DNA of 40,704 bases, taken from the UHGV virus genome UHGV-0244400; one strand, given 5' to 3'. Shown here piece by piece: positions 2,696 through 37,355 of the stretch. The position numbers and the translations under genes are program-made. Under the pieces are notes generated by a model, which made no database searches, was not told the DNA's origin, and was given only the letters and a program-made list of their open reading frames with translations. The DNA comes from a virus. Positions within the stretch are counted from its first letter, which is position 1. Every line of letters starts with the position of its first letter.

Positions 2696-2770
2696 GTCCT
2701 CTTAGTTAAATGGATATAACGAGCCCCTCCTAAGGGCTAATTGCAGGTTCGATTCCTGCAGGGGACACCA
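2696..2770 (+). tRNA. argW: tRNA-Arg (anticodon CCU), integration target of the prophage
   Basis: 75 nt cloverleaf ending ..GGGGACACCA; anticodon loop CUCCUAA; sequence matches E. coli argW as I recall it. Confidence 0.9.
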
Positions 2771-2931
2771 TTTATCAGTTCGCTCCCATCCGTACCAGTC
2801 CGCAAAATCCCCTGAATATCAAGCTTTCCGTAGATTTACAGTTCGTAATGGTTCGCGTCAGATCGTTGACAGCCGCACTCCATGACGGGTAAAAAGTGGA
2901 TAAAATAATTTTACCCACCGGATTTTTACCC

Positions 2932-4089
2932 ATGCTCACCGTTAAGCAGATTGAAGCAGCAAAGCCGAAAGAAAAACCATACCGCCTACTCGATGGTAAT
3001 GGCCTGTACCTTTATGTCCCTGTATCCGGAAAAAAGGTCTGGCAGCTTCGCTACAAGATTGACGGTAAGGAAAAAATACTGACCGTAGGAAAATATCCGC
3101 TTATGACTTTGCAGGAGGCAAGGGATAAAGCATGGACTGCGAGGAAAGACATCTCGGTTGGCATCGATCCGGTAAAGGCGAAAAAGGCCTCGTCTAACAA
3201 CAATTCCTTTAGTGCGATTTACAAGGAATGGTACGAACACAAGAAGCAAGTCTGGTCAGTAGGGTATGCGACTGAACTTGCAAAAATGTTTGATGACGAC
3301 ATTTTACCCATCATCGGCGGTCTTGAAATTCAGGATATTGAGCCGATGCAACTGCTGGAAGTAATCCGCAGATTTGAAGATCGCGGTGCAATGGAGCGAG
3401 CCAACAAGGCCCGCAGAAGATGCGGCGAGGTTTTCCGTTACGCTATTGTCACCGGAAGGGCTAAATATAACCCGGCACCTGACCTTGCTGACGCCATGAA
3501 GGGATACCGCAAGAAAAACTTCCCGTTTCTTCCTGCAGACCAGATCCCGGCATTTAACAAAGCACTGGCAACATTTTCAGGAAGTATCGTATCGCTCATT
3601 GCGACCAAAGTTTTACGCTACACAGCCCTAAGAACGAAAGAGCTTCGTTCCATGCTATGGAAGAACGTCGATTTTGAAAACAGGATTATCACCATCGACG
3701 CCAGTGTGATGAAGGGTCGCAAAATTCATGTGGTCCCTATGTCAGACCAGGTGGTTGAACTTCTCACTACGCTAAGCTCTATCACCAAACCAGTATCAGA
3801 GTTTGTTTTTGCCGGGCGCAACGATAAGAAGAAGCCAATCTGCGAGAACGCGGTATTGCTTGTGATCAAACAAATCGGCTATGAAGGTCTGGAAAGCGGT
3901 CACGGATTCAGGCATGAATTCAGCACGATTATGAACGAGCACGAATGGCCTGCTGATGCTATTGAAGTGCAACTGGCACATGCCAACGGCGGATCTGTGC
4001 GCGGGATTTACAACCATGCTCAGTATCTCGATAAGCGCAGAGAAATGATGCAGTGGTGGGCGGATTGGCTTGATGAAAAGGTGGAGTGA
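2932..4089 (+). CDS. intS: P4-type tyrosine integrase (IntS-like)
   Basis: 385 aa from the first ATG (track ORF begins at an upstream GTG); N-terminus MLTVKQIEAAKP and C-terminal catalytic region typical of P4-family integrases; adjacent to tRNA. Confidence 0.9.
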   Translation: MLTVKQIEAAKPKEKPYRLLDGNGLYLYVPVSGKKVWQLRYKIDGKEKILTVGKYPLMTLQEARDKAWTARKDISVGIDPVKAKKASSNNNSFSAIYKEWYEHKKQVWSVGYATELAKMFDDDILPIIGGLEIQDIEPMQLLEVIRRFEDRGAMERANKARRRCGEVFRYAIVTGRAKYNPAPDLADAMKGYRKKNFPFLPADQIPAFNKALATFSGSIVSLIATKVLRYTALRTKELRSMLWKNVDFENRIITIDASVMKGRKIHVVPMSDQVVELLTTLSSITKPVSEFVFAGRNDKKKPICENAVLLVIKQIGYEGLESGHGFRHEFSTIMNEHEWPADAIEVQLAHANGGSVRGIYNHAQYLDKRREMMQWWADWLDEKVE

Positions 4090-4251
4090 TCAGCTTTAAC
4101 CACCTTCGAATAGCGCAAAGCTTTGCAATCCAGTGCAAAGCCTTATGTGTCTCATGATGTATCGCTCAATGTGTTTTGTGGTGATATACTTAGAATCTTT
4201 CCTAGCACACTGATTTTCATAGTGACAACTTTAAAGATCATAACTACACAC

Positions 4252-5367
4252 ATGACCAGACAACTTAATGGGATACAGGTTTTGCGTGGTATCGCAGCCT
4301 TAATAGTCGTTTTAGGACATAACAGATCTCTGTATGGGCACATAGATAGTGGTTCTTTTATAGACTATTTGACAATGCAGGCAACGTTTGGTGTTGAGGT
4401 ATTTTTCATAATAAGTGGATTCATAATCACTTATTCCACAAGAAATGCTTCAGGAGATTCACTCTCTAGATTTTATTCATTTCTGACTAAGCGCATATTT
4501 AGAATATATCCAATATATTTTATTGTATTAAGCGTATATATCTCTTTGTTTTGTTATAATTTTAAAGAAGGACATTTCGCTCTTTATGAATTTACCTTAA
4601 GTAACATCATCAAATCTTTCTTACTTATACCGCTTAATCCAAATATAAGCCCTCCATTTTATGGATGGGGGACTCTCATTGTGTCATGGACTCTTGGATA
4701 TGAGATGTATTTCTATATGGTTTTTTCATTTTCCTTATTAATTTCCAAGAAATACAGAAGCTATATATCAATGGCAATATTGATGGCTGTATATTTGTGC
4801 CTATCGGTTTCCTTTGGTAATCCAATAGACTTTAATGCCAATACATTTCATGTTCCTTTCTATGGGTATCATAGTTATCTAGGATTCATTGGAAATCCAA
4901 TAATATTTGACTTTGTACTAGGGATGATAATTGCCGAATGTTATTTGCGATTTCATGATAAACTGTTCGAAAATAAAACAATTGGATATCTATCTATTCC
5001 AGTTATAACTCTATGCTTTATGATGTGGCTTACAGGATTTAAATCAGGCCAAGGTATAACCAATACTGGATTTATTGCTTGCTTGATAGTCTTTTGCGCA
5101 ATATGCATAGAAACATCTACCAAGATTGAGTTTCCAAAGTTCATGGTATTGATGGGTACGTGTTCATACTCTCTTTACCTTATTCATGTTCCGATTAAAA
5201 AAATAATAGAGATATATGGAAAGGATATTCCATTCATTCCGCAAGAACCATCAGTAATGATGTATTTAATGTCCATCTCAGTATCAATAAGCCTGTCTAT
5301 ACCAATGTACTATCTGGTAGAGAAAAAATTTATAGATATAGGACATAATATTTCCAAAAAAATATAA
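4252..5367 (+). CDS. Acyltransferase family 3 integral membrane protein; putative O-antigen (LPS) O-acetyltransferase, serotype-conversion cargo
   Basis: Multi-pass hydrophobic protein with the N-terminal LNGIQVLRGIAALIVVLGHN motif typical of acyltransferase-3 (Oac/OafA-like); strongly AT-rich; located between int and tail-fibre genes; start chosen at first ATG (track ORF starts at TTG 4123). Confidence 0.75.
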   Translation: MTRQLNGIQVLRGIAALIVVLGHNRSLYGHIDSGSFIDYLTMQATFGVEVFFIISGFIITYSTRNASGDSLSRFYSFLTKRIFRIYPIYFIVLSVYISLFCYNFKEGHFALYEFTLSNIIKSFLLIPLNPNISPPFYGWGTLIVSWTLGYEMYFYMVFSFSLLISKKYRSYISMAILMAVYLCLSVSFGNPIDFNANTFHVPFYGYHSYLGFIGNPIIFDFVLGMIIAECYLRFHDKLFENKTIGYLSIPVITLCFMMWLTGFKSGQGITNTGFIACLIVFCAICIETSTKIEFPKFMVLMGTCSYSLYLIHVPIKKIIEIYGKDIPFIPQEPSVMMYLMSISVSISLSIPMYYLVEKKFIDIGHNISKKI

Positions 5368-25541: not shown

Positions 25542-26001
25542 TTACCACCCCACCAGCCTCTTTAAATCGAGCAATCAGGTCACCGATTTTATGTTCATAC
25601 TGACCGTAACCTGAACCGGGTAACGACGCCCAGATATTGCTGCAACGATCGATAGCCTGACGGATATCACCGCGATCAATCATCGGTAAAGCGCCACGCT
25701 CTTTAATCTGCTGTAATGCCACTGAATCCTGGCTTCTGGGCGAGAAGTCTTTCAGCCCAAGCTGCTTACGGTAAGCATCCCACCAGCGTGAAAGAAGCTG
25801 GTAACGTCCGGCGGCTGTTGACTTGAGTTTCGGGTTTAGCGTGACAAGTTTGCGAGGGTGATCGGAGTAATCAGTGAATAGCTCTCCGCCTACAATGACG
25901 TCATAACCATGATTTCTGGTTTTCTGACGTCCGTTATCAGTTCCCTCCGACCACGCCAGCATATCGAGGAACGCCTTACGTTGATTATTGATTTCTACCA
26001 T
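25525..26001 (-). CDS. R: Endolysin R (lambda-type lytic transglycosylase)
   Basis: 158 aa; near residue-for-residue match to my recollection of lambda R ([24 protein letters not shown]..). Confidence 0.95.
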
Positions 26002-26308
26002 CTTCTACTCCGGCTTTTTTAGCAGCGAAGCGTTTGATAAGCGAACCAATCGAGTCAGTACCGATGTAGCCGATGAACACGCTCGTTATATAAGCGAGAT
26101 TGCTACTTAGTCCGGCGAAGTCGAGAAGGTCACGAATGAACCAGGCGATAATGGCGCACATCGTTGCGTCGATTACTGTTTTTGTAAACGCACCGCCATT
26201 ATATCTGCCGCGAAGGTACGCCATTGCAAACGCAAGGATTGCCCCGATGCCTTGTTCCTTTGCCGCGAGAATGGCGGCCAACAGGTCATGTTTTTCTGGC
26301 ATCTTCAT
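25985..26308 (-). CDS. S: Holin S (lambda class I holin with dual-start motif)
   Basis: 107 aa beginning [34 protein letters not shown] as in lambda S107/S105. Confidence 0.9.
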
Positions 26309-26550
26309 GTCTTACCCCCAATAAGGGGATTTGCTCTATTTAATTAGGAATAAGGTCGATTACTGATAGAACAAATCCAGGCTACTGTGTTTAGTAATCA
26401 GATTTGTTCGTGACCGATATGCACGGGCAAAACGGCAGGATGTTGTTAGCGCGACCTCCTGCCACCCGCTTTCACGAAGGTCATGTGTAGAAGGCCGCAG
26501 CGTAACTATCACTGATGAATTCAGGATAGCCAGTGGCTACGGCTCAGTTA

Positions 26551-26626
26551 TGGTGCTGTTTAACGGACTTGAACCGCTACCCATTCGCTTACAAGGCGAC
26601 CGCTCTACCATTGGAGCTAAAACAGC
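26551..26626 (-). tRNA. Phage-encoded tRNA-like gene, predicted tRNA-Thr (anticodon UGU)
   Basis: 76 nt; perfect 7-bp acceptor and 4-bp D stems, T-loop TTCAAGT, anticodon loop CUUGUAA, ends ACCA; one mismatch in anticodon stem; lies between Q and S where lambdoid phages often carry tRNAs. Confidence 0.55.
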
Positions 26627-26631
26627 ATGTT

Positions 26632-26706
26632 TGGCGGGACAGCGTGGACTCGAACCACGATAAGAAGGTTAACAGCCTTCCGTAATCACCTTTATACGAC
26701 TGACCC
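26632..26706 (-). tRNA. Phage-encoded tRNA-like gene, predicted tRNA-Asn (anticodon GUU)
   Basis: 75 nt; anticodon stem-loop GAAGG-CUGUUAA-CCUUC and T arm CGTGG-TTCGAGT-CCACG perfect, ends GCCA; one mismatch each in acceptor and D stems, so possibly a pseudo-tRNA. Confidence 0.5.
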
Positions 26707-26769
26707 AAATAAAAAAAGCCACCGTTGCAACTTAAGAGTCACTAACGGCAGCTTACCTTCTAATTATGG

Positions 26770-27288
26770 CTAAATGGATAATTGCATGTCAAGGCTTTTA
26801 ACAGCAACATGCTTAACTTTCTCAACACGTTTACGCATTTTGAAAGCATTTTGCATTGGCTGGTACAAAACAAATAACGATGCTTTCAGGATGTCGTCAA
26901 TTTCGTTTCTACAGGTTGCCAGTGAAGGTTTTCTCCATCCCTCGCCACCACGTCCACACATCTTGCGTGGCTTTGCAGTCGCGTGATAGTAGGATGCAAT
27001 TGCTCGCTTAGATGAACCATGAGCGTAGTAGCTGAGGAGGATGCCAAAGGCTTTCTTGTCAATGCACATGACGGAATCGACGACCTGAGAAATCAACATT
27101 CCATCATCATCATTGCACATTGGCCTTGTCATAACTCTTCCCGGCTCTACGCTCTCCATGAACTTCGCTATTACGCTGCTCATGCGCTTTTCCAGACGAC
27201 CTGAATAAACCCATGCGCCCCACAGTTCAAGCCAGCCATTCAGCCACTCATGCTGTTCTTTGGTGAGGTTTAGTTCTCTTATGCCCAC
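26770..27288 (-). CDS. Late-gene antiterminator Q (non-lambda Q type)
   Basis: 172 aa; Cys-containing; directly upstream of tRNAs and lysis cassette and downstream of nin phosphatase; track ORF begins with GTG. Confidence 0.7.
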
Positions 27289-33284: not shown

Positions 33285-34001
<717 letters not shown>

Positions 34002-34087: not shown

Positions 34088-34993
34088 ATGTCGATTAACA
34101 GCAATAGCGAATCCCTGCATCAAATGCAGCTTTTCCCTGTAGTAGAGGTTGTTTCTGATGATATTCCTATGGGCGTTCTCAATGATGGAACTCCTTACCT
34201 AACTCTCTACGGTCTCGCAAAGTTATGCGGCATTGATGACACGCCACTGAGGGTGTTCACATCAAACTGGAACACAGAGAAAAACAAACCCAGAGGTCAA
34301 AAAGTAGCTGCGTATTTAGCTGAGAAAGGGTTTCATAACGTCGAAAAGCTATACACTCGCGTTTTAAATAGCTCAAACGTGGAAACTCATGCTTATCCTG
34401 ACTATGTTTGCATGGCTATCCTCCGTTACTACGCTCTAGATGCCACCAATTTTGATAGGTCAGTCGCAATAGGTAATTTTGTTCGCTTGGCTGAGTACAC
34501 GCTTAAGCGAATGATTTATGAAAAGTCAAATTACAACCCAAATGCTTCAATAGATATCTCATTCGAGAACTATAGAGCAAGGATTAAGCTAAACGATCAG
34601 ATACCGACAACTCATTTTGCAGTATTCAGAGAGATAGCTGACATTGCCATGAACCTGATCGGAGGAGGATTCCCAATGGATGACACCACATCTTTGGATG
34701 GAAGTGTTGGAATTCACTGGGGAAAGTATTGGACAGCTAATGGGCTATCTGAGAAATTCGGGGAAAGGGTGCAGTACCCACATTTATTCCCCGAAAATTA
34801 CAGGCAGTCAGCTGCAAATAAGCATATAACAGCTTGGATTTATCCTATTGAGGCACTTGGCGTGTTCAGAAAATGGCTACACGATAATTACGCAATGGAA
34901 AAACTGCCAAATTACCTTGGGAACAAAAAGATTAGTAACGCCTCCGAGCTATTAGAGTCGATAAAAAAACCAGCACTCCCAAATAAGCATTGA
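34088..34993 (+). CDS. Unknown 301-aa protein at the rexAB-equivalent locus; candidate prophage-encoded anti-phage / abortive-infection protein (possibly BstA-like)
   Basis: Complete ORF with SD (AAGGA) 86 bp after the cI stop, no intervening terminator, followed by its own terminator and then OL/PL; AT-rich; no similarity to RexA/RexB; N-terminal region looks like a KilA-N/Bro-N-type domain (from memory, low confidence). Confidence 0.8.
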   Translation: MSINSNSESLHQMQLFPVVEVVSDDIPMGVLNDGTPYLTLYGLAKLCGIDDTPLRVFTSNWNTEKNKPRGQKVAAYLAEKGFHNVEKLYTRVLNSSNVETHAYPDYVCMAILRYYALDATNFDRSVAIGNFVRLAEYTLKRMIYEKSNYNPNASIDISFENYRARIKLNDQIPTTHFAVFREIADIAMNLIGGGFPMDDTTSLDGSVGIHWGKYWTANGLSEKFGERVQYPHLFPENYRQSAANKHITAWIYPIEALGVFRKWLHDNYAMEKLPNYLGNKKISNASELLESIKKPALPNKH

Positions 34994-36645: not shown

Positions 36646-36706
36646 TATGCATACCAATAACGCTTCACTCGAGGCGTTTTCGTTATGTATAAATAAGGAG
36701 CACACC

Positions 36707-36871
36707 ATGCAATATGCCATTGCAGGGTGGCCTGTTGCTGGCTGCCCTTCCGAATCTTTACTTGAACGAATCACCCGTAAATTACGTGACGGATGGAAAC
36801 GCCTTATCGACATACTTAATCAGCCAGGAGTCCCAAAAAATGGATCAAACACTTATGGCTATCCAGACTAA
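36707..36871 (+). CDS. cIII: CIII (FtsH inhibitor, CII stabiliser)
   Basis: 54 aa [54 protein letters not shown] as in lambda; SD AAGGAG; track ORF extended upstream. Confidence 0.9.
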   Translation: MQYAIAGWPVAGCPSESLLERITRKLRDGWKRLIDILNQPGVPKNGSNTYGYPD

Positions 36872-37058: not shown

Positions 37059-37355
37059 ATGAACGCTTATTACATTCAGGATCGTCTTGAGGCTCAGAGC
37101 TGGGCGCGTCACTACCAGCAGATCGCCCATGAAGAGAAAGAGGCAGAACTGGCAGACGACATGGAAAAAGGCCTGCCCCAGCACCTGTTTGAATCGCTAT
37201 GCATCGATCATTTGCAACGCCACGGGGCCAGCAAAAAAGCCATTACCCGTGCGTTTGATGACGATGTTGAGTTTCAGGAGCGCATGGCAGAACACATCCG
37301 GTACATGGTTGAAACCATTGCTCACCACCAGGTTGATATTGATTCAGAGGTATAA
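37059..37355 (+). CDS. gam: Gam (RecBCD inhibitor), short GamS form
   Basis: 98 aa beginning [21 protein letters not shown], matching lambda GamS. Confidence 0.9.

Follow-up and report, generated by a model that had tools for sequence, protein, structure and literature searches.

The window analysed here is the whole 40,704-nucleotide stretch of the viral genome UHGV-0244400. On its minus strand, a tRNA-Asn(GUU) gene and a tRNA-Thr(UGU) gene lie one behind the other between the late antiterminator gene Q and the holin gene, the transcribed order being Q, Asn, Thr, holin (Table 1). The original prediction had placed two adjacent minus-strand tRNA-like sequences with CCA ends at this site, 76 and 75 nucleotides long and 5 nucleotides apart, in a gap of about 460 base pairs. 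ARAGORN returns the same coordinates, both sequences score far above the Rfam cutoff, the lengths and the separation are reproduced exactly, and the gap measures 461 base pairs between the ORF ends (26770 and 26308). The spacer between the two genes (26627..26631) reads AACAU, and both CCA ends are encoded in the genes. The idea that the tRNAs occupy the late-promoter-proximal site of a lambdoid prophage agrees with how this sequence is annotated in hundreds of E. coli genomes and in phages 21, Sf6 and BTP1.

Table 1. Features of the Q-holin region and of other parts of the prophage discussed in the text (window coordinates).
Feature	Position	Strand	Basis and remarks
Holin/antiholin S, lambda S107/S105 type	25985..26308	-	First late gene; Pfam PF05106, E 2.4e-30
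Lambda-homologous structured leader	26309..26553	-	Between tRNAs and holin start
tRNA-Thr(UGU)	26551..26626	-	ARAGORN (anticodon tgt), Rfam RF00005; 76 nt
tRNA-Asn(GUU)	26632..26706	-	ARAGORN (anticodon gtt), Rfam RF00005; 75 nt
tR' intrinsic terminator	26707..26754	-	Hairpin 26754..26716 plus U7 run; ends 4 nt before tRNA-Asn
Candidate sigma-dependent pause element TAAGCTG	26749..26755	-	Homology to phage 21 annotation (OL657228)
PR' -10 hexamer CATAAT	26763..26768	-	18-nt spacer; shares base 26768 with second 8-mer
Putative Q-binding element AATTATCC/ATTTAGCC	26768..26783	-	Two tandem 8-mers in promoter spacer; homology only
PR' -35 hexamer TTGACA	26787..26792	-	Inside 3' end of Q; promoter scan, 11/12 matches
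Late antiterminator Q, phage 21/82 type	26770..27288	-	ORF; Pfam PF06530 Phage_antitermQ, E 1.3e-25
tRNA-Arg(CCU), argW-like, intact	2696..2770		Prophage end; ARAGORN, Rfam 63.4 bits
IntS-type integrase	2896..4089		Beside tRNA-Arg(CCU)
Acyl_transf_3 protein	4123..5367		Prophage end region (2696..5367)
Lambda-type cI	33288..34001		Directly upstream of BstA ORF
BstA, 301-aa ORF	34088..34993	+	Abortive-infection protein match PADLOC PDLC02356, E 1.3e-105
Lambda cIII thermoregulator element	36694..36752	+	Rfam RF01804, 88.5 bits
Gam, lambda-type RecBCD inhibitor	37059..37355	+	ORF in segment 97% identical to gam/bet/exo-annotated region

Both genes match the Rfam model RF00005 from end to end, tRNA-Thr with 61.2 bits (E 5.4e-11) and tRNA-Asn with 55.3 bits (E 2.2e-9), for a gathering score of 29; these values put both well above chance for a 40.7-kb window. 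ARAGORN finds three tRNA genes in the window in all, the third being the tRNA-Arg(CCU) at the prophage end. The two genes share the U33, the GTTC T-loop, the seven-nucleotide anticodon loop and the above-threshold score of bacterial elongator tRNAs. The cmscan alignments contain one non-standard pair in tRNA-Thr (G27.A43) and two in tRNA-Asn (U4.U69 and U13.U22), in line with the one or two stem mismatches per tRNA that had been described. The anticodon arm of tRNA-Thr is GUCGC/CUUGUAA/GCGAA. Under the identity rules of the E. coli enzymes, tRNA-Thr carries the elements recognised by ThrRS (G1-C72, C2-G71, G35 and U36) and tRNA-Asn those recognised by AsnRS (G34, U35, U36 and the discriminator G73). 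Both are genuine tRNA genes, almost certainly functional.

The homologue of the window's Q is annotated as Q in Sf6 and in E. coli genomes. The promoter scan found a sole sigma-70-like site in 26250..26850, TTGACA/CATAAT, the counterpart of the PR' marked in the Sf6 and phage 21 records. Its -10 hexamer follows the Q stop codon and aligns with the -10 of phage 21 relative to the conserved leader. The two 8-mers in the promoter spacer are the same string as the Q-binding element proposed for phage L (PMC8022706), and the putative element is positioned like the one that the phage 21 annotation gives as experimentally defined. Homology to phage 21 (98%) begins at 26755, the phage 21 +1 site plus one; from this we infer a late transcription start near 26756, together with the pause element TAAGCTG. 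The late promoter and qut site had been expected to lie in the Q-holin gap. This holds for the -10, the start, the pause element and tR', all within the first 60 or so nucleotides past the Q stop codon, but not for the -35 and the Q-binding element, which overlap the 3' end of Q.

The tR' terminator folds with a free energy of −20.2 kcal/mol (z −4.6, with none of 200 shuffles as good), and it agrees base for base with the terminator that is marked in phage 21 on the basis of PMID 1704887. A simple terminator scan missed it both in the window and in phage 21, owing to a bulge in the hairpin, and it was recovered by folding. The promoter scan found no independent tRNA promoter between tR' and the tRNAs, nor elsewhere in the gap. 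Together, PR' and tR' should give a constitutive RNA of about 50 nucleotides (26707..26756, minus strand), which the old phage 21 record AJ237660 annotates as 'aRNA'. By analogy, this RNA would be comparable to lambda 6S RNA and to StxS, the small RNA of Stx phages that a passage of PMC7547250 describes as the product of early termination at tR'.

Downstream of the tRNAs, the leader is 97.7% identical to lambda 44942-45244, with homology that starts at the CCA of tRNA-Thr and continues into S. Its segment 26550..26420 is strongly folded (dG −51.8, z −3.9), and a strongly structured segment after tRNA-Thr is common to lambda, phage 21 and HK446. Behind tRNA-Thr of phage 21, the first hairpin is followed by CUUCUUUUUUU, which is terminator-like. 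A U-run of the CUUCUUUUUUU type is absent from the window, where the second hairpin ends in GUUUUG. The hairpin region may act as a back-up terminator, shielding the lysis genes from leak-through. A hairpin at about 26465..26425 (GGCAGGAGG...CCUGCCGUUUUG) was considered as a counterpart of the lambda tR' and rejected: lambda tR' lies at about 44720-44781 and the equivalent of this hairpin at about 45030-45070 (J02459).

The pair is already known, with annotated copies in many E. coli prophages as well as in phages 21 and Sf6. Its identity to the pair annotated in phages 21, Sf6, SfI and BTP1, and to that of HK446, is 96-99%; for phage 21 (OL657228) the value is 97.6% over 168 nucleotides, and the 501-bp region from Q to the holin is 97-98% identical to that of Shigella phage Sf6. 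PR', the qut site, tR', tRNA-Asn and tRNA-Thr are annotated in the Sf6 GenBank record (2003), while the phage 21 record OL657228 marks the -35, Q-binding element, -10, start site, sigma-dependent pause element, terminator and both tRNAs. The same tRNA genes are discussed in the genome papers of SfI (PMC3636060) and phage L (PMC8022706). Among 5426 complete E. coli genomes, 369 contain the pair, and there the NCBI pipeline names both genes; it also occurs in 76 of the 120 viral contigs retrieved with a loose pattern.

The closest described arrangement is that of phage 21 (OL657228, AJ237660), with Asn followed by Thr at the same 5-nt spacing, an identical upstream tR' and the first 62 nucleotides downstream of the tRNAs in common. 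The window's tRNA-Asn is one nucleotide off that of phage 21 and Sf6, in the D-loop, and its tRNA-Thr differs from that of phage 21 at three positions (5, 26 and 68), none of them in the anticodon arm. The changes at 5 and 68 are compensatory, U5-A68 replacing the G5-C68 of phage 21; the same double change separates the window from Sf6. U-A is the minority allele, found in 5 of the 76 viral contigs, against about 70 with G-C and one with G-U. The C-terminus of Q, the promoter spacer and the Q-binding element belong to the phage L/Sf6 type, not to that of phage 21, and the lysis genes are of the lambda S/R type instead of S21.

In HK446 (JQ086372), tRNA-Asn and tRNA-Thr are both present, at positions 407-481 and 487-562 of the segment compared, and the pair sits behind a lambda-type Q, PR', 6S leader and tR', joined exactly at the terminator T-run. 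The pair thus stands directly behind the tR' T-run with a 21-type or a lambda-type leader alike, and homology with lambda and with phage 21 breaks off at its edges, the tR' T-run and the Thr CCA. These junctions define a discrete cassette of about 160 nucleotides, always directly behind tR'. At the corresponding site in lambda, a search down to E<=10 found no tRNA remnant. The HK446 GenBank record annotates neither tRNA, and the 2026 preprint on HK446 tRNA-Thr counts one tRNA in HK446; the Asn partner was apparently overlooked.

The Thr member is already known as a counter-defence tRNA from the phage 21 and HK446 alleles. The phage 21 tRNA-Thr protects cells against P2 Old and resists cleavage in vitro, a resistance attributed to a shorter anticodon stem and changed pairs near the cut sites, including C28U/G42A, and near-identical Thr alleles restore ACA decoding in vivo (PMC12445682). 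HK446 tRNA-Thr restores the plating of Old-sensitive phages (bioRxiv 10.64898/2026.07.10.737580), and a single resistant tRNA suppresses Old toxicity only partly (PMC12445682; bioRxiv 10.64898/2026.07.10.737580). The trigger of P2 Old is lambda Gam, and host tRNA-Asn is cut by Old more slowly (PMC12445682). A lambda-type Gam is encoded in the window (Table 1). The anticodon arm (27-43) of the window's tRNA-Thr is identical to that of the phage 21 tRNA-Thr, including G27.A43; the apparent defect in this stem is therefore the published resistance determinant. With its UGU anticodon, a change in the paired CNG motif (28-30/40-42), U28/A42 replacing C28/G42, and a shortened stem, this tRNA has the sequence features of an Old-resistant tRNA-Thr(UGU).

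The PARIS nuclease AriB cuts the host tRNAs Lys(UUU), Thr(UGU) and Asn(GUU) at U36AAU39C40/N41, with U39 essential, although the motif alone is insufficient for cleavage (PMC12409363). Lys(UUU) is its main target, tRNA-Lys(UUU) is needed for escape from PARIS (PMC12409363), and lambda is also restricted by PARIS (PMC12409363, PMC9122126). At the AriB site, the window's tRNA-Thr reads UAAGCG and its tRNA-Asn UAACCU, both without the UAAU-C motif; the U39G of tRNA-Thr is shared with the rescuing Thr tRNA of T5. In tRNA-Asn, the CNG motif, CGG/CCG in the host, is AAG/CUU. Host-like motifs are kept in several relatives, namely UAAUCA in P1 Asn and in JLK-2012 Thr, and CAG/CUG in the Asn of a Klebsiella phage.

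The anti-Toprim tRNAs of T5, T4 and the Bas phages resemble the window's pair in two ways. The anticodons are those of two of the three main AriB targets and of the main Old target, and the substitutions fall at the same determinants (39 and 41; 28-30/40-42; 27-43). The window's pair differs in being a two-gene late-leader cassette of a temperate lambdoid prophage, not a large virulent-phage array, and in having no tRNA-Lys(UUU). From its motif changes, the Asn member is predicted to perform a resistance role equivalent to that of tRNA-Thr. On similar sequence grounds, both tRNAs may resist PARIS.

On balance, we consider the pair to be a functional Asn-Thr cassette of the phage 21 type, expressed from PR' and serving mainly counter-defence rather than the supply of rare-codon tRNAs. 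The cassette has its place in the late operon's untranslated leader, directly behind tR'. Transcription would start from the constitutive PR' and become strong once Q lets RNA polymerase pass tR'; expression from PR' is deduced from the position of the cassette behind tR' and the lack of a separate tRNA promoter. Weak expression in the lysogen, through leakage at tR', is probable. Host tRNA-processing enzymes would excise both tRNAs, with their encoded CCA ends, from the transcript. The most likely selected role is counter-defence: tRNA-Thr, being nuclease-resistant, would take the place of the host tRNA-Thr(UGU), the only decoder of ACA, which is destroyed by the Toprim nucleases P2 Old (activated by the phage's own Gam) and PARIS AriB. 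Its resistance would come from the altered anticodon stem, which has lost the CNG motif and is made shorter by G27.A43. With equivalent motif changes, tRNA-Asn might likewise replace a secondary target of these enzymes.

ACA codons are present in the early genes and in Q itself, so protection during infection would require tRNA made before Q acts. In RNA-seq of BTP1 lysogens, the two tRNA genes are set apart as highly expressed loci (PMC7067206). This is consistent with the expression route proposed here but does not prove it, given the high spontaneous induction of BTP1. The HK446 authors suggest that its tRNA possibly reflects adaptation to a temperate way of life (bioRxiv 10.64898/2026.07.10.737580), HK446 also having a protein inhibitor of Old. 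A more far-reaching version of the counter-defence reading, which we put forward tentatively, is that the Asn-Thr pair is a dedicated two-tRNA module against Toprim tRNases of the OLD/PARIS family. Here tRNA-Asn, with CNG and UAAU removed and U4.U69 conserved, would also be resistant, and a leaky tR' behind PR' would pre-load lysogens with both tRNAs, allowing the phage to survive a defence set off by its own Gam.

Codon usage bears on the alternative that the tRNAs boost the decoding of ACA, rare in E. coli, and of AAC/AAU during the late burst. Codons were counted on the ORFs called in the window, with the genome-wide codon usage of the host as baseline. In the late operon, which is co-transcribed with the tRNAs, ACA makes up 15% of the Thr codons (10.3 per 1000); it accounts for none of the 29 Thr codons of the major capsid gene, none of the nine of the tail tube gene and 6% of those of the sheath gene. 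Its share is 0.11 in two flanking host genes and reaches 27-35% in the early genes, which does favour codon supply. Asn codons are split 0.59/0.41, which is host-like, and Asn is served by a single isoacceptor encoded by several host genes. Cognate codons are thus not over-represented in the highly expressed late genes, and the comparison for ACA and AAC/AAU enrichment suggested with the original prediction came out essentially negative. Codon supplementation is weakly supported for this cassette.

Elsewhere, the evidence on codon supply is mixed. The late-leader site would give top expression when most protein is made. ACA is reported at 17.3 in SfI against 7.1 in its host (PMC3636060), and 24 of the 25 Asn codons of the phage L capsid gene are AAC (PMC8022706); on the other side, the SfI authors saw no Asn bias (PMC3636060). 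The cassette is joined to the late genes of a podovirus (Sf6), a siphovirus (lambda-like) and a myovirus (the window, SfV/e14-like), and such unrelated sets indicate that it is not tuned to any single one. Over-expressed host tRNA-ThrU fails to rescue cells from Old toxicity, whereas the phage alleles do so (PMC12445682; bioRxiv 10.64898/2026.07.10.737580). Codon supply as the main role is accordingly doubtful in our view, but the ACA-rich early genes and the ACA enrichment reported for SfI leave room for some benefit of this kind.

The junctions described above also suit a role mainly in cis, in which tRNA processing sites in the leader would release the late mRNA from its 5' leader or govern how stable it is, or the conserved tRNA sequence would serve as a recombination joint between modules. 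The homology with lambda and phage 21 breaks exactly at the cassette edges, and a strongly structured segment follows the tRNAs. Lambda has the same structured leader and works without tRNAs, however, and the fact that anticodons, identity elements and covarying stems are conserved speaks for selection on the tRNAs as such, making a mainly cis role improbable.

For tRNA-Thr, covariation was assessed with a set whose distant relatives were the Klebsiella phage, P1, JLK-2012 and host thrU. Eight of 21 pairs are changed on both sides and 94.6% of cells are paired, a level reached by none of 500 shuffles, and slid controls gave at most three pairs. In tRNA-Asn, three pairs (6-67, 7-66 and 28-42) show compensatory changes in the Klebsiella-phage copy (2 of 500 shuffles as high); the signal is weaker than for Thr owing to the few divergent sequences. 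Despite these changes, the Klebsiella-phage Asn retains U4.U69 and U13.U22, and U4.U69 is kept in 73 of the 76 viral contigs. The sequence as a whole is nearly invariant across the 76 viral contigs and 369 genomes. The mismatches had been taken as a sign of doubtful function; conserved as they are while other pairs change in a compensatory way, they are features rather than decay. The pattern indicates that the tRNAs are under selection.

These data bear directly on the view that the genes are decaying, non-functional relics carried along by mosaic recombination. Their oddities are real: besides the non-standard pairs, tRNA-Asn has C9 and a four-nucleotide variable loop, and tRNA-Thr has C14. 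Single-sequence folding neither favours nor reproduces the cloverleaves (z −1.1 and −1.5), which is usual for unmodified tRNA sequences, and it was set aside as evidence in either direction. Rfam scores of about twice the threshold, together with the compensatory changes and near invariance just described, oppose decay, as does the fact that near-identical Thr alleles decode ACA and rescue cells (PMC12445682; bioRxiv 10.64898/2026.07.10.737580). For tRNA-Thr, the relic reading is effectively refuted, and for the pair it is very improbable. A further reading, in which the cassette makes up for a host tRNA gene that the integrating prophage has damaged, was raised as a possibility for HK446 (bioRxiv 10.64898/2026.07.10.737580) and accords with the many prophages that insert into tRNA genes. 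It has next to no likelihood here: the prophage abuts an intact tRNA-Arg(CCU) beside its IntS-type integrase, the cassette anticodons GUU and UGU do not match this integration target, and phages that differ in attachment site share the cassette. A paper on helper-embedded satellites contains nothing on these tRNAs serving as attachment sites.

Since automatic pipelines already annotate the pair, it passes as a routine genome feature. If its function is mainly counter-defence, as favoured here, a textbook 'rare-codon tRNA' is recast as a defence-evasion device. A prophage tRNA-Thr with the anticodon arm of the allele shown to defeat P2 Old is found in about 7% of complete E. coli genomes. If the role proposed for tRNA-Asn is true, the cassette would help to predict which temperate phages are able to spread through P2- or PARIS-carrying strains. 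Overlooked even in the 2026 HK446 study, the Asn partner is an obvious and cheap experimental target.

Asn plus Thr pairing recurs across unrelated temperate phages. In P1 (1425-1578 of the segment compared), Asn and Thr form an independent tandem, 2 nt apart. Its Asn-Thr-(Ile) genes share the tandem order and a phage-controlled transcription unit with the window's cassette; however, the P1 Thr is only about 80% identical, the Asn is unrelated in sequence and retains the host-like motif, and the unit lies in the C1-controlled early region. The ileZ-argN-argO tRNA genes of the Stx phage 933W are likewise in a phage-controlled transcription unit, with anticodons other than those of the window's pair. 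In Klebsiella phage ST16-OXA48phi5.2 (601-917 of the segment), the same Asn and Thr are part of an expanded array, Asn-Phe-Thr-Arg, downstream of Q. The JLK-2012 cassette is Asn-Thr-Gly, followed by tciA as in P1. Its tRNA-Thr (687-762 of the segment compared) is chimeric, the 5' third being phage-type and the anticodon and T arms of the E. coli thrU type; G.U pairs keep the acceptor stem, and the nuclease-sensitive UAAUCA and CNG motifs are retained. In phage L (MW013502), the gene given as tRNA-Leu(UAA) (687-758 of the segment compared) has the acceptor, D and T arms of tRNA-Thr, but its anticodon arm is different and shorter and seems to have C at position 33; this comparison suggests that it derives from the Thr gene.

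A lambda-like genome with a 100% local match differs from the rest of the window, and the window's late genes belong to the SfV/SfI/e14 type of myovirus. At the prophage end, the Acyl_transf_3 protein may be an O-antigen acetylase as found in serotype-converting Shigella phages. The match to the cIII thermoregulator marks the early-left region (cIII, kil, gam, bet, exo) as lambda-like. The BstA ORF had no Pfam match; it lies directly downstream of the lambda-type cI, in the rexAB position, as a prophage defence gene in an arrangement resembling the cI-bstA operon of BTP1.
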